64,000 nt of DNA, taken from positions 1-64,000 of IMG/VR virus record IMGVR_UViG_3300015371_000007. One strand, given 5' to 3'. This stretch comes from a virus. Shown piece by piece: positions 3,132 through 57,800 of the stretch (position 1 is its first letter; each line of letters starts with the position of its first letter). The notes beneath the pieces are model-generated. The model saw nothing but the letters and a program-made list of their open reading frames with translations. It did not search any database and had not been told where the DNA came from. A program made the position numbers and the translations under genes.

Positions 3132-3337
3132 CACCCCTCTACGTGGCGCTGCTCGGCGTCAGTCTCTTTGCCGTGCTGCGCGTGCTGGCGTGGCGCAAGG
3201 TGCACCGCCAGCGCACCGACGCCACGTTGGTCATCCATCCGCCCCGCCGGTTCGTCGATGCCGACGGCCGGTCCGACTTTCGTCCCGAGCTGCGCGAGGC
3301 CACCGAGGCGCGTCGCGCGAAGGAGTCGCGCGCATGA
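3128..3337 (+). CDS. Small membrane protein
   Basis: N-terminal hydrophobic helix LYVALLGVSLFAVLRVLAW; coupled start/stop. Confidence 0.6.
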   Translation: MTPLYVALLGVSLFAVLRVLAWRKVHRQRTDATLVIHPPRRFVDADGRSDFRPELREATEARRAKESRA

Positions 3338-4323
3338 CGGTCGGGCTGTCGGCGATTCGCGTGGATGACGACATGCAGGTCCGCGCCGGGATCAACCAGC
3401 AGGTTGTCGAGGAGTATGCCGCGAAGTTACGCGCGGGTGCCAAGTTCCCGCCCATCGTGGTCTTCGCCGACGCGCTGGGGTTCTACATCGCGGACGGCAA
3501 CCATCGCTACCGCGCACACGACCTGGCCGGCCGCACCACCATTGAGGTGGAGCTGCGGCAGGGGACCAAGGCCGACGCGTTGTGGTATGCGCTCGGCGCC
3601 AACAAGGCCCACGGGCTGCAGCTGTCGAAGCAGGATAAACGGCACGCGGTGCTTCGGGCCTTTGCCTCGTTCCCTGACCGTGGCGCCGCGGAGATTGCCG
3701 ACCACGTCGGCTGCAGCGCGCAGTGGGCGTGCATCGTGCGGCGGGGGACGGAAACCCCTAGCGATCGGATCGTCACCCGCGCCGGCCAGGTGCGGATCGC
3801 GTCCAAGCGCGCGGCGATTGAGGCGCACCAACAGATCGAGGTGTTGCTGAAGGACGGCGTGCCCAGCGTCGACATCGTGCGTCGATTGCGCGTCGGGCCG
3901 GATCTGGTGTCGTCGATCAAGCGCCGGTTGAATCTCGGCCGCGACCAGTCGCGCGAGGCCATCGAAGCACGGCGCGCCCGCATCCGTGAGATGGCCGCAG
4001 GCCAATACACCTCGCAACAGATCGCCGACGCGGTGGGCCTGACCGACATTCATGTGCGCGAGGTCGCCCGCCGATTCGGCATCGACATCTCGGCCGATCG
4101 CGCAATGGGCAAGATGTTCCGCCACGATGCCAACCGCATCGTCTCGCGCATCGTGCTCGACGCAGAGAACCTCCTCGAAGGCCTCGGCCTCATCGAGTAC
4201 CGCGATCTGGAGCGGGCGCAGATCCCGGCCTGGCTCACGTCGCTGAAAAAGTGCCGCGAGCAACTCTCGACGTTCATTCGTCGCCTGGGGGAGGAGCAGT
4301 CACACAATGGCGAAGCTGCCTAA
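3334..4323 (+). CDS. ParB/Srx N-terminal domain protein with C-terminal HTH motifs
   Basis: FPPIVVF...YIADGNHRYRA ParB motif, ANKAHGLQLS, repeated HTH-like segments; AAGGAG RBS. Confidence 0.8.
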   Translation: MTVGLSAIRVDDDMQVRAGINQQVVEEYAAKLRAGAKFPPIVVFADALGFYIADGNHRYRAHDLAGRTTIEVELRQGTKADALWYALGANKAHGLQLSKQDKRHAVLRAFASFPDRGAAEIADHVGCSAQWACIVRRGTETPSDRIVTRAGQVRIASKRAAIEAHQQIEVLLKDGVPSVDIVRRLRVGPDLVSSIKRRLNLGRDQSREAIEARRARIREMAAGQYTSQQIADAVGLTDIHVREVARRFGIDISADRAMGKMFRHDANRIVSRIVLDAENLLEGLGLIEYRDLERAQIPAWLTSLKKCREQLSTFIRRLGEEQSHNGEAA

Positions 4324-5152
4324 CAGTCGCAAGCCGTCCAAGATCCGTCCGGTGTCCATCGCGCAGATGAAGGTGCCGACCGCGCTGGTGACGCAGCGGG
4401 AGTTTCGCAAGGCGCACGGCGATAACATCGCCGCCGATCTGGACCTGAACAAGATCGGCTACCCCATCATGAACCATCGCGACGGCATCTTTTGGGTGCT
4501 CGACGGCCAGCACCGCATCTATGCGCTCAAGCAGAACGGCTTCGAGCACGACAACGTCGATTGCGAGGTCTACGAAGACCTGACCGATGCGGAGATGGCC
4601 GACATCTTTCTCGGCCGGGACCGGCGGAAGCAGATTGCGACGTACGACAAGTTCCACGTGTCGTGCACCGCGGGCTACAAGCGCGAGCTGGACATCCTGC
4701 GCGCGATTGAAAGCAACGGCCAGCGCGTGAGCCGAGAGCGGGGCGAAGGCATCACGGCGGTCGGCGCGCTGGGCGGGGTCTACGACCGCTCGGGCGACGT
4801 CGTCGTCGGCCAGGTGATTCGCACGATCAATCTCGGCTTCAGCGGCGATAGCGATGCCTTCGACCGCGCCATCATCGAAGGCCTGGGACTCGTCTTCAAC
4901 CGCTACAACGGGCGGACGAACGAGAAGGTCCTCGGGCAACGGCTCGGCCAGCTGCGGCACGGCGCGCGCGAGCTGCTCCGCAAGGCAGAGAGCATCCGCG
5001 AGCGCACCGGCAATCAGAAGAAGCACTGTGTCGCCGCCGCCGTGGTCGACATCTACAACAAGGGCGAGGGCGCGCACGGGAAGGGCCGTCTGCCGGCGTG
5101 GTGGAAGGAAGGCATCGGCAACGCGAAGACGCGGTCAGAGGTGGACGCATGA
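4307..5152 (+). CDS. Second ParB-like (DUF6551-like) protein
   Basis: FWVLDGQHRIYAL motif followed by LTDAEMADIF. Confidence 0.7.
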   Translation: MAKLPNSRKPSKIRPVSIAQMKVPTALVTQREFRKAHGDNIAADLDLNKIGYPIMNHRDGIFWVLDGQHRIYALKQNGFEHDNVDCEVYEDLTDAEMADIFLGRDRRKQIATYDKFHVSCTAGYKRELDILRAIESNGQRVSRERGEGITAVGALGGVYDRSGDVVVGQVIRTINLGFSGDSDAFDRAIIEGLGLVFNRYNGRTNEKVLGQRLGQLRHGARELLRKAESIRERTGNQKKHCVAAAVVDIYNKGEGAHGKGRLPAWWKEGIGNAKTRSEVDA

Positions 5153-5403
5153 CGCTCCTCGCGCAAGCGGCCATCGGCCTGGTCCTCGTGATCGTAGCCG
5201 TGGCGTTCATCGCCGCCCTGCTGGCGCACGGCGCGTCCCCGGCCCGCTGTCAGTCGTGTGGTCTCGATCTGACGGACCGGCACCTGTCGTCGGAATACTG
5301 CCTGCTGTGTCTCGCCGAGCGGGCGCGGGAGGCCGAGCGGCTCAAGATCCGGAATGACGTGCGCGCGTACGTCCAGCGGAGGCAAAAAAAGACCGGGACG
5401 TAG
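5149..5403 (+). CDS. Membrane-anchored Zn-ribbon protein
   Basis: TM helix, then CQSC...CLLC. Confidence 0.55.
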   Translation: MTLLAQAAIGLVLVIVAVAFIAALLAHGASPARCQSCGLDLTDRHLSSEYCLLCLAERAREAERLKIRNDVRAYVQRRQKKTGT

Positions 5404-5464
5404 GCAGCGTCCCGGTCCCACCCTCGCGGGTGCATTGGCGCGGCAGAGGTGACAAGTCGGCCGC
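5384..5464 (-). ncRNA. Predicted ~80-nt antisense small RNA
   Basis: Minus-strand promoter TTGCTG(5500-5495)-N18-TAGACT(5476-5471) with extended -10 TG; intrinsic terminator with a perfect 10-bp stem (5391-5400/5408-5417) and U7. Confidence 0.6.
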
Positions 5465-5565
5465 GCGGAGAGTCTAGCAAACCTCGGGTTTCGGCAGCAA
5501 ACCAGTTTCCCGTGGCGCGGGCCCGTCGAGGGGGTCTCAGGCCACGTCTGCCTAAAGGAGTGCGT

Positions 5566-6225
5566 GTGGCGAACGAGAAAGCCCCGAATCCGCCGAACGT
5601 CTACCAGTGCATCTTGAAGGTGTGCGCCGACCTGGCGCAGACCGGCATCGGGAAGGACCGGCGGAACGAGCAGCAGAACTACAAGTTCCGCGGCATCGAC
5701 GACGTTTACAACGCGCTGGCGCCGGTGCTCGCCAAGCACGGGTTGGTGATCCTCCCGCGCATCGTCAGCCGCGAGGTGGCCGAGCGCGTGACGCAGAAGG
5801 GCGGGACGCTCTTTTACGTCACGCTCTGCGCGGAGTTCGACTTCGTCTCGGCGCACGACGGCAGTCAGGTCACGGTGCGGACCTACGGCGAAGCGATGGA
5901 CAGCGGCGACAAGGCGACGAATAAGGCCATGTCGGCTTGCTACAAGTACGCGGCGCTGATGACCTTCGCGATCCCGACCGAGGGCGACCACGACACGGAG
6001 AACGCGACGCCGGAACCGACCGTCGAGAAGGCGCCGGCCGGCTTCGATGACTGGTTCGCCGACGTCCTCGCGACCGCCGACACCGGCCTGGAGCCGCTGA
6101 AGGCGGCGTGGACCGCCAGCAAGAAGGGCTACCGCGAGTACGTGCAGAAGTATCGCGCCGCTGAGTGGGACCGGGCGAAGAAGCGCGCGATCGCGATTGA
6201 CCAGACGAAGCCGCAGCCGGTCTAG
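5566..6225 (+). CDS. erf: ERF-family single-strand annealing protein
   Basis: IGKDRRNEQQNYKFRGIDDVYNAL and GEAMDSGDKATNKAMSACYKYA motifs; AAGGAG RBS. Confidence 0.9.
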   Translation: MANEKAPNPPNVYQCILKVCADLAQTGIGKDRRNEQQNYKFRGIDDVYNALAPVLAKHGLVILPRIVSREVAERVTQKGGTLFYVTLCAEFDFVSAHDGSQVTVRTYGEAMDSGDKATNKAMSACYKYAALMTFAIPTEGDHDTENATPEPTVEKAPAGFDDWFADVLATADTGLEPLKAAWTASKKGYREYVQKYRAAEWDRAKKRAIAIDQTKPQPV

Positions 6226-6227
6226 CC

Positions 6228-6893
6228 ATGCGGGCCTTCACCGTCGACTACTGCGAGCAACGCTCACCCGAGTGGTTCGCCGCCCATGCCGGGCTGCTGT
6301 CGGCCTCGGACGCGGCGGCGATGATGTCTCGGCTGAAGCGCAGCGGTGAAGAACCTGTCGGGAAGACCGAGCTGCGGCTCCGCCTGGCGCTCGAAACGAT
6401 CCGCGGCGTGGCGCTGGCGGAGGACGGCTACGACAACCACTGGATGCGGCGCGGCCGCGAGCTGGAAGCGGCCGGCGTCGCCTCCTACGAGGCGATCACC
6501 GGCGAGATCGTGCAGACGGTCGGGTTCCTGCGCAGCACGACGCTGCCGATTGGCTGCAGCCCGGACGGGATCATCGGGGACTTCGAGGGCGGGCTGGAGC
6601 TGAAGTGCCCGAAGTTCACGACGCATTGGGAGTACCTGAGTGGGAACCGCCTGCCGCCGGAATACCAGTGGCAGGTCGTGCATTCGCTGTTCGTCAGCGG
6701 CTTGCCGTTTTGGGACTTCTGCTCCTACTGCCCGGAGTTCGAGGGGGACGCGCAGCTGTTTCGCTTCCGCGTGTGGCGCGACAGCGTTGACCTCGACGCC
6801 TACGCCCTGGCGTTCGCGCTGTTCTGGACCGAGGTGGCGGCGTTGACGGAGACGCTGCGCGCGCGCAGCGGGATGGAGGTGGCTCATGCCTGA
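6228..6893 (+). CDS. YqaJ / lambda-exonuclease family recombination nuclease
   Basis: QRSPEWF..., MRRGRELE, GCSPDG, GLELKCP, YQWQV motifs. Confidence 0.9.
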   Translation: MRAFTVDYCEQRSPEWFAAHAGLLSASDAAAMMSRLKRSGEEPVGKTELRLRLALETIRGVALAEDGYDNHWMRRGRELEAAGVASYEAITGEIVQTVGFLRSTTLPIGCSPDGIIGDFEGGLELKCPKFTTHWEYLSGNRLPPEYQWQVVHSLFVSGLPFWDFCSYCPEFEGDAQLFRFRVWRDSVDLDAYALAFALFWTEVAALTETLRARSGMEVAHA

Positions 6894-7215
6894 CCCGAAC
6901 GAGGTCGGTGCGATCTGGAAGCAGTCGAATGAACGCGGCACGCAGTGGTTGCGCGTGAAGGTAAATCTCGAGCGGCTGCTGGAGCTGACCGGCGGCGCGG
7001 TGGGCCCGGTCACGCTCGTGGCGTTCAGCCGGACGAAGACGAAGGACGAACAGCCGGACTACGACCTGCTGCTGTCGAATCGCCGGCATCAACAGGTAGT
7101 CGCGCCGGAACCCGAGGCGGACGTGCGGCCGAACACGCCCAGCGAGACGGACACCGAGTGGGACGCCGTGCCGGGCACGATGTCTGAGGCGCGCCGAAGG
7201 GCGCACGAACGCTGA
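6886..7215 (+). CDS. Putative ssDNA-binding (DUF736-like) protein
   Basis: EVGAIWK...QPDYDL with an acidic tail; follows ERF and exonuclease genes. Confidence 0.55.
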   Translation: MPDPNEVGAIWKQSNERGTQWLRVKVNLERLLELTGGAVGPVTLVAFSRTKTKDEQPDYDLLLSNRRHQQVVAPEPEADVRPNTPSETDTEWDAVPGTMSEARRRAHER

Positions 7216-7238
7216 CTCGCGCCGAGTGCCGCGCCGCG

Positions 7239-7484
7239 GTGATCGCGCGCGCGTGCGGCCGGTGCGAGCGGTGTGGTGGGCCCGCGCGCGACGACCTGCC
7301 CGAGTGGCATCCGCGTCGAGCGGCGGTGAACGAGCTGGTGCCGCGGTCGAAGGGCGGCGACCCGACCGATCCGACGAACTGCGAGTTGCTCTGCCAGGAC
7401 TGTCACATGCCGGGCGGGCAGCACGCGCCAACACAGACACGGATGGAACGGCTGCGCCGCGGGCGCAGCACGGAGTGGCCCTAA
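7239..7484 (+). CDS. HNH endonuclease-like protein (start may be ~7212)
   Basis: CERCG...NELVPRSKGGDPTDPTNCELLCQDCH. Confidence 0.7.
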   Translation: MIARACGRCERCGGPARDDLPEWHPRRAAVNELVPRSKGGDPTDPTNCELLCQDCHMPGGQHAPTQTRMERLRRGRSTEWP

Positions 7485-9884: not shown

Positions 9885-9914
9885 TTGCATGTTGGGTCGT
9901 GACGTATATACAAT
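9885..9914 (+). promoter_or_regulatory. Sigma70-type promoter for the brnA-like/int pair
   Basis: TTGCAT-N18-TACAAT with palindrome GTATATAC overlapping the -10. Confidence 0.55.
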
Positions 9915-9931
9915 AGGCGTCGGAGGTTCGA

Positions 9932-10090
9932 GTGACGCAGACCGCACGACGCCCACGGGACACGAAGGAACCCATCAGCATTCGGCTCGACCGACAGGTG
10001 CTGCGCGCCTGGCGCGCGACGGGCAAGGGGTGGCAGACGCGGCTGGCCGCAGGCATCGCGCGTCTCAAGCCCGTGCCGGGTGCCCGGTAA
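9932..10090 (+). CDS. Orphan BrnA-antitoxin-like ribbon-helix-helix protein (52 aa)
   Basis: MTQTARRPRDTKEPISIRLDRQVLRAWRATGKGWQTRLAAGI; GGAGG RBS; TAATG coupling to the integrase; absent from the ORF track. Confidence 0.75.
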   Translation: MTQTARRPRDTKEPISIRLDRQVLRAWRATGKGWQTRLAAGIARLKPVPGAR

Positions 10091-11223
10091 TGGCCCGCAA
10101 GGATCGCGGCACAAAGATCGCCGAAGGCATCTGGCGCGACGAGTTCGGCTACGCCGTCTCGGTGGCGGTCGGCAGCGGGAAGAACAAGGTACAGCGGGAG
10201 GCCCGCTACCCGTTCGACACGAAGCTCAAGACGATGACCGACTGGCAGGACGAGACGCGCGTGGCGCTGCGAAAGCTGGTGCCCACGCACGGGAAGGGCA
10301 CGCTCGCGGCCGCGGTCGCGACCTACCTCAAGTCGGTCGCCTCGATGCCGACGTACGGGGATCGCGAACGCGACTTGGCGTTGTGGGTGGCGGAGTTCCC
10401 GAATCGCCAGCGGCATTCGATCAAGTCGCACGAGATTTCCGCGGTGCTGCACAAGTGGATAAAGGACGGCTACGCGGCGATGACCGTCATCAATCGGCGC
10501 ACGGCGCTCATGGCGGTCTGGACCGCGCTCGACGGCGCGAAGGCCGTCAACCCGGTTGATGAAGCCTACCGGCCCGACACCGATCCGTTGACGGCGAATG
10601 ACATCCCGTGGCCGACCATCGAGCGCGTGCTCGACGCGGTCGAGGATCGCGGACAAGGCATTCGCGGCCAGAAGCGCACCGACGTAAGCAAGACCAAGAT
10701 CCGGCTGCGGCTGATCGCCTACACCGGCTTGCCGCACAAGCTCGTCAAGCAGATCACGGCGGACGGGATCGATTGGGAGAAGGGCCGGGTGCTCGCAGCG
10801 AAACGGCGCAAGGGCACCGGCGTCGAGGCGCGCTGGCTCCCCATCGCGCCGGAGGCGCTGCGCGCGCTGGAGGACTTCGTCGAGTACGACTGTTTCGGGT
10901 CGTTCTCCAATTCGAGCATGTTGAAGACGTGGCGCCGCGCGTGGCGGTGGGTGCATCCGACCTGGCCGAAGGATAAGAAGATCCCCTGCGTCTACCGGCT
11001 GCGGCATTCCTTCGCGACGGCGACCTACGCCAAGAGCGGGGATGACCGCGGGACGGCACTGCTGCTCATGCACAGCCGCAAGAGCAACATGATCCAGCGC
11101 TACACGCTCGGCGCGGAACCGGAGCGGATGGAGAAATGCGCCGAGGCATTCGCGGACCGGCGCCTGGAACTCGTCAAGGGCGCCGCGAAGCCCAAACCGA
11201 AGCCGAAGCGCAAGGCCGGGTGA
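10090..11223 (+). CDS. int: Tyrosine recombinase (integrase)
   Basis: LIAYTGLP, KRRKG, YRLRHSFAT, LLMH, IQRY catalytic-box region; immediately followed by attP. Confidence 0.9.
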   Translation: MARKDRGTKIAEGIWRDEFGYAVSVAVGSGKNKVQREARYPFDTKLKTMTDWQDETRVALRKLVPTHGKGTLAAAVATYLKSVASMPTYGDRERDLALWVAEFPNRQRHSIKSHEISAVLHKWIKDGYAAMTVINRRTALMAVWTALDGAKAVNPVDEAYRPDTDPLTANDIPWPTIERVLDAVEDRGQGIRGQKRTDVSKTKIRLRLIAYTGLPHKLVKQITADGIDWEKGRVLAAKRRKGTGVEARWLPIAPEALRALEDFVEYDCFGSFSNSSMLKTWRRAWRWVHPTWPKDKKIPCVYRLRHSFATATYAKSGDDRGTALLLMHSRKSNMIQRYTLGAEPERMEKCAEAFADRRLELVKGAAKPKPKPKRKAG

Positions 11224-11242: not shown

Positions 11243-11529
11243 GGTGCCAGCCACATTCGGTGGCTGGCACTGGCTGGCACCGCGGCCGGTCACCCAAAGT
11301 GGCTGGCACCAGTGGCTGGCACCAATGGGAAAAAGTAAAAAAAGGGCCGTATTTATTGGGGGCGCCCGTAGCTCAGAAGGACAGAGCACCGGTTTCCTAA
11401 ACGGAATCCGACCCCCCCCGTCCCTCAAGAATCCCGAAAACATTCAGCTTTTTCACACCCGAGCGTGGCCGCATCCGGCCTCGCTTGGCCGGTGCCGGCC
11501 GCAAACGGCTGGCACCACGGCTGGCACCA
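11243..11529. other. attP: arm-type repeats flanking a core made of the 5' half of tRNA-Arg(CCT)
   Basis: YGGCTGGCAC(CA) at 11261, 11271, 11300, 11313, 11506, 11518 plus inverted copies at 11243 and ~11491; core 11362-11402 GCGCCCGTAGCTCAGAAGGACAGAGCACCGGTTTCCTAAAC. Confidence 0.85.
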
Positions 11530-16079: not shown

Positions 16080-16610
16080 CTAGCTCGCGGCGGCGGCTTT
16101 CTGTTCGTCGCGGAAGCGGATGACGTCTTCCTTCGGAATCACCATCACCTTGAGCTTCACGTCGGGCCGCGCCTTGGACCCACGCCGTTCATAGCTGGTG
16201 TGCGGCAAGCGGCCATCGTTCATCATCAGGCGCACGTTCGCATCGCTGCACTTGAGGATCTTCGCGGCCTCTTTCACGGTGACGTTGGTGCCGTCCGGGA
16301 GTGGCGCGTCGAGCGGGATCGAGGAGCCGTTGCCGTTGCCGTGCTCGGCGCCGTTGGCCTTGGCGCGCTTGGCTCTCTTGCCGCCGCTGCGCCGCGCTTG
16401 GAACATCTCCGTCGCCTTCTCGCGCAGCCGCTCGACGTTGATGCGCCCACTGCCGTTACCATTGGCCCCAGCGAGTCGGCCGCGCTTCGTCGTTTGAAGC
16501 GCGAGGCCGGTGCGGTCCATGAACGCCAGCGCGGCGTTCGTGTCGTGCTGAATCTGCTCTAACACCGTTCGCAGCTCGAAAAAACTCTGCATCTCTCTGT
16601 TCGCAGCCAT
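16080..16610 (-). CDS. DNA-binding protein with C-terminal HTH_17 (excisionase-like) domain
   Basis: VTVKEAAKILKCSDANVRLMMNDGRL; GAGGTGA RBS. Confidence 0.7.
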   Translation of the reverse strand: MAANREMQSFFELRTVLEQIQHDTNAALAFMDRTGLALQTTKRGRLAGANGNGSGRINVERLREKATEMFQARRSGGKRAKRAKANGAEHGNGNGSSIPLDAPLPDGTNVTVKEAAKILKCSDANVRLMMNDGRLPHTSYERRGSKARPDVKLKVMVIPKEDVIRFRDEQKAAAAS

Positions 16611-16675
16611 TGTCACCTCGCTACACAAAGTACACGAATAGGGTTAGTCGGAATCCGGAATCCCGCGTCCCCCGG

Positions 16676-19416: not shown

Positions 19417-19606
19417 GTTCGTCCTCGTCCTTGTCAAAGGTGTCGAACGGCGCGCCGACCGCCTGTCGGATGACCGCCTCGCCGCCGGCCTGCAACTCGC
19501 TGACGCGGCGGCGCAGGCCGTCCATGATTTCCTCGGTGCTCGCCCGAGTGGCGTCCTCACTCAATGCCTCGAACGCCAGCGTGTAGGCGTGGTTGTATGT
19601 CGTCAT
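19391..19606 (-). CDS. Hypothetical protein
   Basis: MTTYNHAYTLAFEALS..., coupled to the upstream gene. Confidence 0.6.
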   Translation of the reverse strand: MTTYNHAYTLAFEALSEDATRASTEEIMDGLRRRVSELQAGGEAVIRQAVGAPFDTFDKDEDERDANESAD

Positions 19607-20286
19607 CAGAACACGACGATTTCGCGGATGTCCTCGTAGCGCACGCGCTCGCGGCGCTCGGGGGTGAGCGGTTCGTAGGTGTCGGTGTCCAGCTCCACAA
19701 CCTCGATGCCGGCCGCGGGGACGTGCGCGCGGGCCTCACCCTCGCGCCTGTCCTCGATCCACTGCCACTGCTTCATCCGCACGGGCCGCGACCGGCCGTC
19801 TGCGGTCGTTAAGAGAAAGTTGACGCTCATCAGCTTCTCCAGGCCGAAGCCGGTGGTGTCCCAATCGCTCTCCGCGGCGAACGCCAGCATCCAGCCGCAC
19901 CACGGCCGTTCGTTCAGAAACGCGGGCGACGGCCTGTAGGTGAAGCGGTTCGCCAACAGATCCCCCTCGGCCACAAACTCGCCGGCCTTGAGGTCGTAGC
20001 GCGTCGAGCGTTCGTACTCGGTGTCGCCGCGCTCGTCAACGACGAACGACGTGATTTCGTCGGCGTACTCCGCGTACTCGATGTGGCCCAGGCCGTCCAC
20101 GTCCACGCCGATTTCGCGGTCGCAGTGCTCGCGCGGCCGGAGCTGCGTTTCGACCTGTTCAAAGGCCGCGCGCTGACTCGTCGCCTTCACGCCGGTCACT
20201 TTGATCCGTACCGTGACGTAGGCGTGAACGTCGTACTCGTTCAGGGCGGTCCCGTCTGCCAACGGGGGTGTTTGCTGTTCTTCCAT
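19606..20286 (-). CDS. Hypothetical protein
   Basis: 226 aa; AGGAGAAGGTGA RBS. Confidence 0.65.
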   Translation of the reverse strand: MEEQQTPPLADGTALNEYDVHAYVTVRIKVTGVKATSQRAAFEQVETQLRPREHCDREIGVDVDGLGHIEYAEYADEITSFVVDERGDTEYERSTRYDLKAGEFVAEGDLLANRFTYRPSPAFLNERPWCGWMLAFAAESDWDTTGFGLEKLMSVNFLLTTADGRSRPVRMKQWQWIEDRREGEARAHVPAAGIEVVELDTDTYEPLTPERRERVRYEDIREIVVF

Positions 20287-20404
20287 GTCACCTTCTCCTT
20301 ATGGAGCGTTGCCTAAACGCTCTCCACGGCCCCCGAAGGGGCCGAGGGCAGCATTCACGCTACTCGTTTTGCGTCGTGCGGCGCGCGTCCGGTAGTCTGC
20401 CGGC

Positions 20405-22907: not shown

Positions 22908-23351
22908 TTAGAACCTCAACCTTGTCGGACGGCTCGGAACGGCGATGCTGTCCAGGTTGTCGCGGTCGCGGCCCGCATTGCGCTCGGTATAGCTCGGAGG
23001 CACGACGCGCAGCACGTAGCCGCGCGGATCGCCTTGACTGAGAAGAATCCAGCCCGCCGGCAGCACGCCCTTGGCCCGCTGCTCGGCGCGGTAGTCCTCG
23101 ATACGAATGCGCGGGATGCGCTCGTGCGGCTCGGCGGCGTTGGCGCGCACGCGGTGATCGCAGAGGCATGGCCCGCCCGTCGTCGCGGGGCACGGCACGC
23201 GGTCCCGATTGACGTCCGCCGAGCTGCATTCCAGTTCGGCAATCCGCTGCATCGTCGTCGCCGCGCGGAGGAGTACGCGGATCGTTGGCAGGTCGAGGCC
23301 GTTCCGCGTCATGGTGGAAACGAAGTGATCGCGCTCAGCGGCGTAGCTCAT
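22908..23351 (-). CDS. Phage early hypothetical protein with GDPRG motif
   Basis: TMQRIAELEC...SQGDPRGYVLRV; first gene of the left arm. Confidence 0.65.
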   Translation of the reverse strand: MSYAAERDHFVSTMTRNGLDLPTIRVLLRAATTMQRIAELECSSADVNRDRVPCPATTGGPCLCDHRVRANAAEPHERIPRIRIEDYRAEQRAKGVLPAGWILLSQGDPRGYVLRVVPPSYTERNAGRDRDNLDSIAVPSRPTRLRF

Positions 23352-23415
23352 GGCGCGCCCCTGAGAGTCGTGGTTGTCACCGGATGCCTGCCTTGTCACT
23401 GGTCGCGGAAGTGCG

Positions 23416-23495
23416 ACTAGTAAACCATACGCCTCTCGTTTTCTGAAGTCAACTTTACTAGTAAAGTTGACATTGGCTGGCGCGCGGCGCATACT
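23416..23495. promoter_or_regulatory. Back-to-back divergent sigma70 promoters built on a 24-bp palindrome
   Basis: GTCAACTTTACTAGTAAAGTTGAC (23448-23471); rightward TTGACA-N17-CATACT; leftward TTGACT-N17-TATGGT. Confidence 0.85.
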
Positions 23496-23514
23496 CGCGG
23501 GAGAGGTGACAGGC

Positions 23515-23889
23515 ATGGCGACAACGACAGTATTTGCAGAGCGCGGGACGCCGCTATGGGACCGCGTGTGGGCGCTCCTGGCCGGCGATGTCGGCGGCGA
23601 CACCGCGCAGGAATGCGCGTGTTGCGGCGAGCGGTGGCAGTACATGGGAACGTACGTCGAGCACGGCAAGTCGGCGCACGAGTTCCGGCACCGGCACAGC
23701 CCGGGGACGGGGAATCGGGAGTACCGGCGCTTCATCGAGGACACCGCCGCCGGCACGACGACGCAGGCCACGGCCATCGTCTATCCGCCGCGCACCGGGG
23801 CGGCGCACGAGCTGCGCCCCTTGCTCGCGCAGCTCTCGGAGGAAACCGTCGCTCTGCTCCGGGCCGTCGTGCCTGGCTTGGGGGAGTGA
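23515..23889 (+). CDS. Hypothetical protein
   Basis: GAGGTGA RBS; CACCGERWQYMGT...HEFRHR. Confidence 0.65.
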   Translation: MATTTVFAERGTPLWDRVWALLAGDVGGDTAQECACCGERWQYMGTYVEHGKSAHEFRHRHSPGTGNREYRRFIEDTAAGTTTQATAIVYPPRTGAAHELRPLLAQLSEETVALLRAVVPGLGE

Positions 23890-24353
23890 TGGGGTACTGC
23901 TACTGCGCGCGCACCGGCCGGCTGGCGTGTGACGCCTGCGGGACCGCGAACGGGAAGGTCCGGAAACGGACCTGCCCGCATCGCATCGTGTACGCCGACG
24001 GCGGCAGCGCGCCCTACTGCTCGCCGCCTGCGCTCTGTCCGGAGTGCTACGCCACGCATCGGCCCACGCTGCACGTTGACTGCAAGGACGGCGCAGCTCG
24101 GGCGATGCAGCGGGAGGCCGAGCGCGGCGCGCGCTTCGCCTCGGGCGACTTCGAGGTCCGCACGGCGTGGGGCGCTGGCCCTGCGCTCGGCACGTCGCGC
24201 GTCGAGGTGCCGGCGGGACTGGTCGGCGTGCGCTTCGCCAACCGCGCGGGCGCGGAACGCTTTCACTTGCTGGCGAAAGATCGCTACGCCGGCCAGGGCT
24301 GGCTCAGCGACTATGCGCCGGCGGAGCTGGCCGCGTGGGACGCCAAACCCTAG
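23889..24353 (+). CDS. Cys-rich hypothetical protein
   Basis: GRLACDACG...VRKRTCP...YCSPPALCPEC; TGATG coupling. Confidence 0.65.
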   Translation: MGYCYCARTGRLACDACGTANGKVRKRTCPHRIVYADGGSAPYCSPPALCPECYATHRPTLHVDCKDGAARAMQREAERGARFASGDFEVRTAWGAGPALGTSRVEVPAGLVGVRFANRAGAERFHLLAKDRYAGQGWLSDYAPAELAAWDAKP

Positions 24354-24401
24354 GATTTGACAATCCTATGATTCGTGTTTTATACTGGCGGGCAGAGGTG
24401 A
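24353..24401 (+). promoter_or_regulatory. Promoter, copy 1 of a duplicated promoter/RBS module
   Basis: TTGACA-N18-TATACT; 23-bp identity GGATTTGACAATCCTATGATTCG with 25577-25599. Confidence 0.8.
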
Positions 24402-24869
24402 ATGCTTATGTCCGCCAGTGATTCCAGTTCCGTGCTCCCGTCTGATCCGTTCGATCAACTCCTGTCGCGCCTCATCGGCCTGCCCAACGGCGCGCACACA
24501 CAGCCCACGGTCGTGCAATCCGTCGATTTCTACGGGAACGTCACCAGCTACATGGTGCAGACCGTGAAGGCACCGCAGCGGCCGGCCGTCGATGCGCGTA
24601 AGGGCGCGCTCGTGGAGGAAGGGCTGACCGTGTTCGTGACTCAGGTGAACGCCTCGGGCAGCTCGCGCTACATCCTGCCGGCGGCGGTGCTGCGCGCGAT
24701 TGACCGGCAGCGGGACGCGACGACGACGCAGATCCGCCGCCGGCACGGCAAGCGCCTCGCGGCGGAGCGCGTAGGCGGGGCCAACCCCTTCACGCCGGAG
24801 ATGCGCGCCAAGGCGCTGGCGACTCGCCGTCGCAAGGCGGCGCAGCGCGCCAAGCGGAGGGCACGATGA
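24402..24869 (+). CDS. Hypothetical protein (start 24402 or 24408)
   Basis: Follows a promoter and GAGGTGA RBS. Confidence 0.65.
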   Translation: MLMSASDSSSVLPSDPFDQLLSRLIGLPNGAHTQPTVVQSVDFYGNVTSYMVQTVKAPQRPAVDARKGALVEEGLTVFVTQVNASGSSRYILPAAVLRAIDRQRDATTTQIRRRHGKRLAAERVGGANPFTPEMRAKALATRRRKAAQRAKRRAR

Positions 24870-25553: not shown

Positions 25554-25565
25554 GCATTCGAGTTG

Positions 25566-25625
25566 CGCGAATCATGGGATTTGACAATCCTATGATTCGC
25601 GTGTAAGCTAATTGGCAGAGGTGAC
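25566..25625 (+). promoter_or_regulatory. Promoter, copy 2, inside a 36-bp imperfect inverted repeat
   Basis: TTGACA-N17-TAAGCT; CGCGAATCAT...ATGATTCGCG. Confidence 0.8.
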
Positions 25626-25628
25626 GTT

Positions 25629-25814
25629 ATGAGTGGATTTGGTTTCGTGTTCTCGTTCCTGTGGATGACCTCGCTCATCGTGGCGACGGTCACGGCGGTC
25701 AACCATGAGGCGGATAACATGCTGATGCCGCCGCCGTATCGGTACGCGTGGATGCTGGTGTTCGGCAGCGTGGCGGCGATGGTCGGCCTCGTGGGGATCG
25801 CGGTGTTCGCATGA
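25629..25814 (+). CDS. Two-TM small membrane protein
   Basis: Two hydrophobic helices; own promoter and RBS. Confidence 0.6.
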   Translation: MSGFGFVFSFLWMTSLIVATVTAVNHEADNMLMPPPYRYAWMLVFGSVAAMVGLVGIAVFA

Positions 25815-26251: not shown

Positions 26252-26560
26252 ATGCTCTGTCCACACTGCCGGCATTCAGACGGACTGCACAGCCGCCCCT
26301 CGCCTGACGGGCGGGCGGCTGACGGGCGACTGCTCGCGCCCGACTACCAGGCCGGCCAGTGTGGGCAGTCGCACCGGGAGGCGGACGGCACGATCACACC
26401 GTGCGCCTGCCCCGGCTGGTATCCCCACACGACGACGATGGAGCTGGTGGCGGCGACGATGCGCGCGCGGGCGGAGCACACTGCGGTGGCAGACGCCCCG
26501 TTCTCGCTGACCCCGCCGCTGGCGCGCGCGCCGCGCGGCTCGCAAGGCAATCTGTTCTGA
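26252..26560 (+). CDS. Cys/His-rich protein ending in a beta-clamp-like motif
   Basis: CPHCRH...CACPG; C-terminal QGNLF. Confidence 0.55.
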   Translation: MLCPHCRHSDGLHSRPSPDGRAADGRLLAPDYQAGQCGQSHREADGTITPCACPGWYPHTTTMELVAATMRARAEHTAVADAPFSLTPPLARAPRGSQGNLF

Positions 26561-26569
26561 GGTGACACG

Positions 26570-26815
26570 ATGACTGAGACAACCCCTCGCCGCCTGCTCG
26601 CCGTGTGGACGCACGCCGACGGCCGGCGCATTCACGTCTTCACCGACTGCAAGGTCCGGTACCTCGCCGGCTCGCGGCCGAGCATGACCCGGCCCGGTTC
26701 GATGGGCGATGAGTGGCCGGTGCTCTGGCGGCGCGACGTGCCGAACCTGACGGACGCGGAGTGGACCGCCCGTCCCGTCGAGGACGGTTGGACATCCGGC
26801 GAGGTGGCGCAGTGA
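26570..26815 (+). CDS. Hypothetical protein
   Basis: GAGGTGA RBS. Confidence 0.55.
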   Translation: MTETTPRRLLAVWTHADGRRIHVFTDCKVRYLAGSRPSMTRPGSMGDEWPVLWRRDVPNLTDAEWTARPVEDGWTSGEVAQ

Positions 26816-30199: not shown

Positions 30200-30221
30200 C
30201 GACGGGAGGAAGGTGACAGGT

Positions 30222-30440
30222 ATGAACGCGACCGTCGGGCGGGTGGTGCATTACGTCGAGCCGGTGACGCGGGAGCATCGCGCGGCGATCGTGACGGGGC
30301 TGCTGCGGGCGCGCGGGGGCGAAGGGGCGGTGGCGCTGCGCGTGTTCGGGATCGACGACACGTGGGCGGTGCCCGACGCGGTGGAGGAGCCGACCGGCAC
30401 CTGGCCGGGGACGTGGCACTGGCCGGAGCGCGACGCGTGA
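30222..30440 (+). CDS. Phage hypothetical protein (TVGRVVHY...AAIVT...WHWPER)
   Basis: Recognisable small phage family pattern; strong RBS. Confidence 0.7.
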   Translation: MNATVGRVVHYVEPVTREHRAAIVTGLLRARGGEGAVALRVFGIDDTWAVPDAVEEPTGTWPGTWHWPERDA

Positions 30441-54821: not shown

Positions 54822-57800
54822 GTGCCGTCACTGCTGAACCTGGGCACCTTCGGCCGGCTCGCGCAACTCTTTCAGCGCAAGAAGCCGCGCGACGCCTTTC
54901 TCGAGAATCTCGACGAGCAGTGGGGCAACGCGTGGGGCACGCAGCCCGATGCGTCGCCCCCCTCGCGCGATCCGTGGCTCGACCAGATCGCGTCGCAGTA
55001 CCCCTTCGGCGCGTTCGACGAACCGGCCGCGCCCGCGCCCGCGCCGGAGCTGGCGATGCCGCAGCCGGCGCAGCCGGAGCCCGCCGACGATCTCGCCGCC
55101 CGCATCCGCGCCAGCCTCGGCCTCGGCGATACCGACGAGGACAACAGCCTGCTCGCGCAAGTCGAGAGCACGCTGCGGCGCCAGCCGTATGTGCAGCCGC
55201 CAGCGCTGCCGCCGGCAGCGTTGTCGCCGACGGGCGCGCCGCCCGCGTCACGGCCTCCGATCTCGCTAGCGCCGCCAGACATCGCGACGATTGGCGCGAA
55301 CGTGTCGCCGCTGCCGCCGTGGCAGGCCGCGCGCCGGCCCGCGCAGGACGTGCACTTGCCGTCCGAGCCGCCGCCCGCGCCCCCGCCGCCGATTCCGAGC
55401 GGACCGGTCGACATGGCGACCGCGGGCGCGAATGTCTCGACGCTGCCGCCGTGGGCCGCAGCGCGTCCGCCCGCGCGCGATGTGCGCCTGCCGGCGCCTG
55501 GGGCGCCCCCCGCGCCCCCGCCCGCGCCGCCGATGGATGTGGCGACGGTCGGCGCGAATGTGTCGCCGCTGCCGCCGTGGGAAGCCGCGCGGCGCGCTCG
55601 TGATCAACAGTTGCCGCCGACCGCCCCCGCCGAGGATCGGTTGACGACGACGGAGACGATTCCGCAGCTCGCGACGCCGGAGGGCTACGCGCCGCCCCGG
55701 CAGGATGTGTTCAAGGAACGGCTCGCGAGGGTGGTTCAGCGGATGGCAGACGAAGGCTATCCCGTGAAGGTCACCAGCAAGACGCGCACGGCGGCGGAGC
55801 AAGCGAAGCTGTACCAGCAGGGCCGCGACGGCGCGCCTGGCAAGATCGTGACATGGGCCGACGGGACGACCAAGATCTCCAAGCACCAGACCGGCACCGC
55901 CGCAGATCTCGCGTTCGTCGTCGACGGTCGCCCGTCTTGGGACGACAAGTTGCCGTGGCCGCTGCTCGGGCGCATCGCGAAGGAAGAAGGACTGGTGTGG
56001 GGGGGCGACTGGTCTAAGCAGAAGAATGACCGCCCCCACGTCCAGCTGGAGGCCGAGGCCACGCAAGAGGGCCCGTACGCGGCGGCGAAGCCGCTGCCGC
56101 CGAAGCTCCACGGGGCACCGCCGCCGCCACCCGCGGCCCCGCTCCCCACGCCGCCGTCGCCCCCCGTGCCGGTCACCACCGCGGAGGCAAAGAAGGATCC
56201 GTTCGGCTTCGTCGATTTCATCAAGAGCCTCTACACGACCGACGGCGTCGGCATGGTGCCGATCGGCGGCACGCTGATTCCGGTACCGGGCCTGCCGCAA
56301 GTCACCGAGGCGGGCGCGGAGAAGCTACCGTGGGCCGGCGCCGCGTTCGCGGCGGCGGATGCCTACCAGCTCATTGCGGCGGCGCGCCGGCTCCGCGATG
56401 GGAAAGCGACGGCCGCGGACCAGGCGCTTATCGAACAGTACGCCGCCAAAGAACAGGAGATGGCCGAGCACGGCACCTCGTGGGGCTACAACGTCGCGCA
56501 GATCGTGACCGAGATGCCGGCGTTCATGATCGAGATGCTGTCGACCGAGGGTGTGTTCACCGGGGCGCGCACGGCCGGAAAGAAGGCGGCGCAAGAGGCG
56601 ATCGGGAAGCTCCTCAAGGAGTCGGCCGCGGAAGTGATGGCGCGCCGTTCGACGCGATGGGCGACGAAGGTCGCCGAGACCGCGGTGGGCGCCGCCGCAC
56701 AGGAAGCGGCGATGCCCACGCGCGTCGTCGCGAAGATGATGGACTACGTCAAGCCGCCGCTCCATCCGTCGCTGAGTCCGGAGGACCAGCGCCACGTCGA
56801 GGCGGCGACGAAGGCGTACGAGACCATGCGCGGACAGCACGACCACCTCACGGGCGTCTACGACACCGTCGCGGCGCAGCTCCAGCCGGCGCTCGACGAA
56901 ATCGACACGATGAAGGCGCAAGTCGATGCCTTGCGCGCACACGTCAACCCGAACAATCCGGTCAGCGTCGCCGGCTACAACGCCGCGCTGAACGCCCTGA
57001 ACGCGCGCATCGCGCAAGTCCAGCCGCAGCTCGATCGCCTGAAGGCCGACAACGGCCAGATCGTCGATCTTGAGCGCCAGATGCGGACGCACTCGGCCGT
57101 GATGGACAAGGCCGACCAGAAGACGCTGCAGGACACGCTGAAGGAATGGGACGACGATTTCCTCCCGGCGCTCTTCCGCGCCATCCCGGACCAGTTCATC
57201 GAGGTGTTCACCGAGCACGCGGGCGAAGCGATCGAACCGGTCGCGCAGTTGATCGGCGGCAAGCTCGCCAAGACCGCCGTCGGCAAGCAGGTCACCGCGC
57301 TGAAGACCGCGTTGCTGGACGACTGGCTGAAGCTCGCGCCGGGCAACACCATCAGCAAGTGGGTGAAAGAGATCCGCCAGGGCGCGGGCTACAACGGCGT
57401 GCTCGGCGAGTACGGCGAAGAGCGGCTGGCCGACATCATGCGCGCGGCGATGCCGTTCACGCGGCAGGCGGGCGAGCCCAACGCCGCGATGATTCGCATG
57501 ATCACCGGCGAGCCCACGCCGGGGGCGCCCGAGGGCGAGAGCCCTCGTCGCAGCGCGGCGAAGGAGTGGCTCTACCAGACCACGCAGGAGCTGGCCGCGT
57601 TCGCGATCCCCGATGTCATCACGCACGCGGCGGAGCATCTGCCCGCGCCGGGGCAAAAGCCACGCGCGTTCACCGTGCCGAAGGACGTCACGGCCGACGA
57701 ACTGGTCGACCTCCGCCAGCGGCTGCAGGTCGCCCGGCAGAGCGTGCGGGCCGTCGACGACGTGAAGGAGTTGGACTCGCGGATCGCGAAGGTCGACACC

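Follow-up and report, generated by a model that had tools for sequence, protein, structure and literature searches.

A probable small RNA gene with an OOP-like layout and a conserved anti-Shine-Dalgarno loop in an uncultured high-GC phage

Regulatory RNAs encoded by phages are known from few model systems, chiefly phages that infect enterobacteria. A neighbouring design is that of type I toxin-antitoxin modules such as fst/RNA II of pAD1 and bsrG/SR4 of SPbeta, where a small membrane-protein gene and a convergent sRNA share a terminator region and have extra complementarity at the translation start, the toxins being small hydrophobic toxic peptides usually shorter than 60 aa. Among the phage RNAs, lambda OOP forms a duplex with the cII mRNA that is cleaved by RNase III, and P1/P7 c4 and P22 sar are antisense RNAs whose loops pair with ribosome binding sites (RBSs) to block translation (PMC12197685). 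The CU-rich anti-RBS sRNAs, in turn, carry an unpaired motif complementary to RBSs and have many predicted targets at translation starts (PMC5688073). In this article, I will discuss a locus from an uncultured high-GC phage that resembles each of these systems and departs from each.

The window, that is, the whole stretch of DNA analysed here, covers the opening 64 kb of an IMG/VR virus record that is 94.5 kb long and has a G+C content of ~68%. The genes around the element run on the plus strand in the order HTH, DUF6551/ParB-like, small ORF, erf and YqaJ exonuclease, and the small ORF, whose start codon shares bases with the stop codon of the gene before it (ATGA), is translationally coupled within the operon. 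Opposite these genes, a sequence-only reading of the window had placed a minus-strand promoter and an intrinsic terminator bounding an RNA of ~80 nt; both proved to be present, and the predicted RNA is ~83 nt long, with its 5' end at 5464-5466 and its 3' part overlapping the last 20 nt of the small ORF. The features are as follows.

3334-4323, plus strand: HTH protein
4307-5152, plus strand: DUF6551/ParB-like protein
5149-5403, plus strand: small ORF of 84 aa; TM helix at the N terminus, CxxC...CxxC motif (zinc-ribbon-like)
Between the small ORF and erf: gap of 162 nt, containing the sRNA element
5384-5418, minus strand: intrinsic terminator, 11-12 bp stem, loop CUGCCUA, U7 tail (hairpin 5419-5389)
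5419-5432, minus strand: stem-loop 2, 5 bp, GCGA tetraloop
5438-5466, minus strand: stem-loop 1, with the anti-SD loop (5445-5459, conserved core GUCACCUC) on a GC stem of 7 bp
5471-5479, minus strand: extended -10 of the sRNA promoter, TGc plus TAGACT (hexamer at 5476-5471)
5495-5500, minus strand: -35 hexamer TTGCTG, identical in the relative L190
5566-6225, plus strand: erf, ERF-family single-strand annealing protein (Pfam PF04404, 69 bits), the next sense gene 3'
6228-6893, plus strand: YqaJ exonuclease (PF09588)
9889-11223: integrase-like gene (24 bits, slightly below the Pfam cut-off)

Elsewhere in this genome, a single ORF of 7,823 codons extends from window position 54822 to genome position 78293, with a strong coding signal along its whole length.

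The sRNA promoter is weak, scoring 8/12 to consensus, which is why a simple promoter scan did not list it; its hexamers are 18 nt apart, TGc lies directly 5' of the -10, and this -10 shares the TAnACT / nATACT style of the strong promoters of the same phage. The RNA folds as three hairpins at -45.1 kcal/mol (z -5.3), an energy that no shuffle reached, and the loop of stem-loop 1 would be cheap to open, at 0.06 kcal/mol for the apical 9 nt and 2 kcal/mol for the 15-nt loop, the cost rising to 12 kcal/mol when the stem GCC is included. The hairpins are strand-symmetric, and three features alone assign the strand: the promoter, a single G-U pair and the U7 tail, which is found behind the terminator hairpin only on the minus strand. 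Read on the plus strand, this tail is one of just two A7/T7 runs in the 94.5 kb (the second, at 11334-11346, lies just 5' of a tRNA-like segment downstream of the integrase-like gene) and is spelled inside the small ORF as CAA-AAA-AAG, in the window as in L190, with CAA and AAA usage at 16% and 12%. The retention of U7 with rare CAA/AAA codons in both phages, together with the QKK tail of a third relative, is what selection for a minus-strand terminator would leave behind. A coding role for the element was rejected, there being no start codon 3' of the plus-strand SD-like sequence and no conserved ORF on either strand, and so was the minus-strand AUG frame, which shifts between the window and L190 and would cross the terminator.

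Conservation of the sRNA was judged from one readable relative, L190, a 7.9-kb soil metagenome contig that is collinear with window positions 3166-7432 at 76-79% nucleotide identity and has the same order of ParB-like gene, small ORF, element and erf; none of the accessory genes falls within it. When a covariance model built from the single window sequence was run across ~240 erf-containing loci, it gave one clear match, on the minus strand at the equivalent position of this contig (L190:2605-2686, 55.6 bits). The L190 promoter has the identical -35, the TGc and a -10 that agrees at five of six positions (TACACT), at a spacing of 17 nt with a different spacer sequence, and conservation between the two phages is poor in the 35 nt past the -35. 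All three hairpins are retained (z -4.5 against shuffles), and RNAalifold on the pair of sequences finds 8 of 22 base pairs changed on both sides and none broken; the model structure has 9 of 23 pairs double-changed, 97.8% of cells paired and one mismatched cell, in an alignment fitted to the model's structure, and a slid-partner control has 31-44% of cells paired with 0-2 double changes. The stem of stem-loop 1 is wholly different in L190, yet the 8-nt loop core GUCACCUC is identical, bearing in mind that perfect runs of 8-17 nt are not rare at 76% overall identity; stem-loop 2 has 6 bp, a CUUG loop and one compensatory pair, and the terminator has three compensatory pairs with an identical loop and U7. 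Because promoter, hairpins, U7 and loop core are all kept in L190, I regard the sRNA gene as well supported and the segment 5384-5500 as very probably a real, transcribed gene, as predicted from its sequence.

Beyond the -35, the two phages share an identical block of 17 nt immediately before the erf SD (window 5538-5554, L190 2760-2776), preceded by 35 nt of poor conservation. This block contains CTGCCTA, identical to the 7-mer of the sRNA terminator loop, and is therefore complementary to the plus-strand loop at 5402-5408; the plus-strand alifold instead pairs it with GGCAGC at 5493-5498. The block could be a structure of the erf leader or an upstream site of the sRNA promoter.

Further relatives of the RNA were sought widely. 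Nucleotide searches of a phage collection in near and distant modes returned no relative, with no match among 50,697 phage records, BLAST of the spacer against 80 ERF loci returned nothing, exact and gapped pattern scans of viral contigs found no relative, and the covariance model picked out L190 alone among the ~240 ERF loci. The model also found no copy in four phages with the DUF6551/ParB-like gene, nor in the phage that carries a homologue of the candidate target gene at 24408, a fragment that is 35% complete. Two of the phages with the DUF6551/ParB-like gene have other content in the same slot: a hairpin after an A-run, terminator-like on the minus strand and ~25 nt before the start of the next gene, in L162 (5815-5865), and a small, strongly hydrophobic ORF, by eye apparently with two TM segments, in L163 (5815-5990). 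The small ORF itself is equally rare, with just two relatives among 5.8 billion proteins, both sharing the QRRQKK tail and one (P0003, the third relative) known from this protein alone; it has no Pfam or PHROG family and no protein-atlas lead, and a search of viral contigs found no relatives.

How does this locus compare with the systems described above? Like OOP, it would give an RNA of ~77-83 nt from its own promoter inside an early operon, convergent to it and with a terminator reaching into the 3' end of the sense gene upstream, an arrangement that is predicted in silico here and kept in L190. Unlike OOP, it shows no detected sequence or structural homology to that RNA, its neighbours are the TM/zinc-ribbon ORF and erf rather than cII and O, the overlapped ORF is without a known family rather than cII, and the overlap is 20 nt as opposed to the 55 nt of OOP, for which no conserved anti-SD apical loop like the one here is known. 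The loop logic resembles that of c4, the loop being complementary to RBSs, whereas c4 is processed from a transcript of the same strand of its operon and targets a single operon (icd/ant); sar differs in being the direct antisense of the ant RBS, while the RBS-like sequence opposite the present RNA has no gene behind it. The Burkholderia double-hairpin RNAs (RF02278) and Neisseria NmsR share with it a CU-rich unpaired anti-RBS motif followed by a terminator hairpin, in this case the loop core complementary to RBSs and then the terminator with U7; however, those RNAs are chromosomal multicopy host genes that are antisense to nothing, and the motif here sits in an apical loop with a non-16S extension. 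The likeness to type I modules lies in a predicted antisense RNA that overlaps the 3' end of a small membrane ORF by 20 nt and has a 7-8-nt seed match to its RBS. The ORF differs in its length of 84 aa, its zinc-ribbon-like domain and its coupling within an operon, and the seed match of 7-8 nt is just generic SD. No Rfam family reached threshold for the RNA of either phage: RF02278 scored 22.2 bits with L190 (E 0.66, gathering threshold 50) and gave no match with the window, RF02866 ncS16 of Burkholderia scored 14.2 bits (E 2.6), below its gathering threshold of 48, and the C4 antisense RNA model RF01695 gave no match even at E up to 10. The sRNA is a new family of a known general kind that fits no Rfam model.

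The next question is what the RNA does, and the first answer, the sequence-only reading carried to its full extent, is that its main job is to silence an accessory early regulon in trans, the genes whose GAGGUGAC(A) RBSs lie at 16-31 kb and 82-86 kb, with host mRNAs as possible further targets; I consider this possible and hold it tentatively. All seven of the seed matches on which that reading was built do exist, and since each lies 0-6 nt before the ATG that opens a high-GC3 ORF, they are Shine-Dalgarno regions. As candidate trans sites they are as follows.

23502-23511, plus strand: 10-nt match at the RBS and predicted mRNA 5' end of gene 23515-23889 (best predicted energy, -17.5 kcal/mol)
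25617-25625, plus strand: RBS of gene 25629-25814, the 9-nt in-loop part of a 12-nt match at 25614-25625
24394-24401, plus strand: RBS of gene 24408-24869, the 8-nt in-loop part of an 11-nt match at 24391-24401
16610-16619, minus strand: 10-nt match at the RBS of the HTH_17 gene 16080-16610
26559-26567, plus strand: 9-nt match at the RBS of gene 26570-26815
20286-20293, minus strand: 8-nt match abutting the ATG of gene 19606-20286
30211-30218, plus strand: 8-nt match at the RBS of gene 30222-30440

Past the 64-kb window there are two further matches, of 9 nt at 85908-85916 and of 8 nt at 82924-82931, and in the genome 9 of the 18 sites with at least 8 nt of complementarity to the loop are RBSs, which favours a trans role. 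By predicted energy the best targets are the leaders of 23515, 85919, 30222, 25629, 26570 and 16610, whose products are ORFans except for one HTH_17 protein. Three targets had been put first behind strong promoters, and here the scan found 23467-23495 and 24357-24386, the third, near 25581-25609, being a paralogue of the second; judged from these promoters, the three mRNAs are predicted to begin at the A of AGAGGUGA, exactly where the complementarity starts, although sites 24391 and 25614 belong to paralogous promoter cassettes and are not independent events. The idea that the 5442 site is itself a decayed copy of such an RBS cassette was rejected, the sites sharing the motif only, apart from the paralogous pair 24391/25614.

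The promoter regions of these genes have features of their own. The paralogous cassettes at 24340-24401 and 25564-25625 have an 18-nt exact block in common (2 copies versus 0.01 expected), and in both, a palindrome of 16 bp encloses the -35 TTGACA and the transcript is predicted to start at the SD; they look like an operator-controlled pair of short-leader genes. Two divergent promoters at 23443-23495 both take their TTGAC from a perfect palindrome of 24 bp, and the predicted start of the rightward mRNA is the first base of its SD. The divergent leftward unit begins with gene 22908-23351 (147 aa, no family), and the leader of this gene, predicted to be 65 nt long, contains two 8-nt sites 19 nt apart on the minus strand at 23374-23399, GGUGACAA and GUGACAAG. 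Each is complementary to the 5' half of the sRNA apical loop, and the SD core is part of neither.

Whether these matches are more than any anti-SD would make is the crux of the argument. Since the 16S 3' tail pairs perfectly with GAGGTGA, these RBSs will be matched by whatever RNA contains UCACCUC, and the core of every match, and most of its length, is plain SD/anti-SD complementarity, which weighs against a dedicated regulon. Against this background, GAGGTGACA is found four times where 0.4 would be expected, and the 14-mer at 5442-5455 ties first among 16384 N4-GAGGTGA-N3 variants in summed match length to 103 whole-genome RBS windows, with an exact-match rank p of ~1e-4. It had been argued that the matches extend beyond 16S complementarity on both sides, with GGCA upstream and CA downstream, and the two sides fared differently. 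The downstream CA is a real excess: CA follows GGTGA at 6 of 18 RBS sites, compared with a spacer dinucleotide background of 5.7% (p=3e-4; 16S would want TC), and does so at one of 41 comparable sites in 625 kb of other high-GC phage loci, and the four phages with the DUF6551/ParB-like gene and without the sRNA have almost no GGTGA-type RBSs and lack the motif, so it is no general habit of high-GC phages. The upstream GGCA is not credible, and this part of the argument should be dropped because GGCA is buried in the stem of stem-loop 1, where opening costs ~12 kcal/mol, is replaced by GAUG in L190, and lies upstream of the +1 predicted from the promoters at 24357-24386 and ~25581-25609. The CA excess was set against phage backgrounds, and a host-specific RBS habit may be behind it.

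Target prediction against shuffled controls, a check that the sequence-only reading had itself proposed, came out marginal (p=0.05-0.25 across random and composition-matched flanks). In these tests, which combined hybridisation energy with target accessibility and compared the real loop with the same core in other flanks, the mean energy of the top five gave p=0.08 with random flanks, and composition-matched shuffled flanks gave p=0.05, with p=0.10 for the count of targets at or below -12 kcal/mol; a duplex test with the entire 5' third of the RNA was discarded for its unrealistic stem-opening duplexes. Also to be weighed against a trans regulon are that the finding was selected post hoc and that, in the 35%-complete phage fragment without a copy of the RNA, the 24408 homologue has a different RBS. 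On the other side stand a loop core kept while its stem was replaced, an apical loop that is cheap to open, and a loop G, conserved in L190, that pairs with a C of the target unmatched by 16S; judged from sequence, the CA extension and this conserved G favour a specific GAGGUGAC(A) target class, and under the trans model the L190 lineage would be expected to use GGAGGUGACG at its RBSs. In sum, the proposed trans-acting silencer keeps a transcription unit backed by L190 and an anti-SD core in a conserved apical loop, and has to give up GGCA and accept complementarity that is mostly generic and energies that are marginal; a trans-acting anti-SD regulon is an attractive, still uncertain hypothesis with real but modest statistical backing.

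A second explanation, which I find rather doubtful, is that the RNA acts in cis only, as an antisense control of the small membrane ORF and/or the erf-region early mRNA through the 3' overlap, the other RBS resemblances being incidental. The convergent layout with its 20-nt overlap is what one would expect of such a pair, and the small ORF and the RNA co-occur in the window and L190, the protein of the third relative ending in the same C-terminal tail, while the four phages with the DUF6551/ParB-like gene lack the RNA and the small ORF is absent downstream of that gene in the four loci read. The N-terminal TM helix of the ORF fits this picture too, as does its RBS (5137-5144), where the seed match is 8 nt long in the window and 7 nt long in L190, with the base before GAGGUG changing in step (A in the window, G in L190), a single event and thus weak evidence. 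However, a cis pair has no need of the conserved loop sequence, which was nevertheless kept through turnover of the stem, the overlap is short, an ORF of 84 aa exceeds typical type I toxins, and the small ORF is outside the best predicted targets by energy.

It is unlikely that there is no separate RNA gene at all, the hairpins belonging instead to the sense polycistronic mRNA (for processing or stabilisation, or as an SD-like 30S standby or decoy loop before erf) and the promoter being coincidental. The hairpins do form equally on the plus strand, where the pairings found by alifold include that of the conserved GGCAGC with the CUGCC that immediately precedes the erf SD, the minus-strand promoter is weak, and short perfect runs are expected at this identity; no plus-strand promoter was seen 5' of 5445 on reading the sequence. 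But the plus-strand fold of the spacer is far less exceptional (z -2.1 versus -5.3), and U7, which only the minus strand has behind the hairpin, persists in spite of codon bias. The two phages also agree in both hexamers and the TG, correctly spaced, whereas they diverge in the spacer and the adjoining 35 nt, and the SD-like loop has no start codon after it.

That the loop instead targets the strong SDs of numerous host mRNAs and lowers translation in the host, as do the Burkholderia CU-rich toxic small RNAs, which cover RBSs and slow growth on overexpression (PMC5688073), is very improbable: the loop does resemble the 16S 3' tail (L190 matches 8 of 9 positions, UCACCUCC) and the best sub-threshold Rfam scores of the L190 RNA are RF02278, SorX and SorY, all with CU-rich unpaired motifs, but the RF02278 score is far under threshold (22 vs 50 bits) and the conserved G 5' of UCACCUC points to a target class narrower than SDs in general.

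On balance, I favour a ~83-nt structured RNA gene with its own promoter, convergent to the early operon and acting by base pairing, with a loop partner that would lie outside the cis pair. The sRNA is perfectly complementary to the sense early transcript at 5384-5466, including the stop codon of the small ORF, and if both transcripts are made, the sRNA and the sense early mRNA would form a duplex as lambda OOP does with the cII mRNA, which by analogy would be an RNase III substrate. Stem-loop 1 would display a 16S-like anti-SD with the conserved core, followed by stem-loop 2 and the terminator, and the retention of that core amid full turnover of the stem, when the cis pair does not need it, points to an external partner; I lean slightly towards a sequence-specific role for the loop. 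The most likely such partner would be SD regions of the GAGGUGAC(A) type, where pairing would exclude the 30S subunit, the candidates being short-leader mRNAs of phage accessory genes and also the small ORF RBS. That the sRNA occludes SDs of phage mRNAs in trans is, on the sequence evidence, a tentative proposal, and its fullest form is more doubtful still, namely that a temperate phage encodes a mimic of the 16S tail whose loop is tuned to a private, extended SD variant at the extreme 5' end of its own accessory short-leader mRNAs, so that one RNA could switch a whole set of promoter-proximal, moron-like genes independently of the repressor.

For the wider field, this sRNA adds a well-supported family from an uncultured high-GC phage, with an OOP-like layout, a conserved anti-SD loop and no fitting Rfam model. 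If it acts in cis only, it would be one more instance of a known design; if the trans model is true, it would be a clear case of one phage RNA and a private RBS dialect controlling many of the phage's own accessory genes post-transcriptionally.
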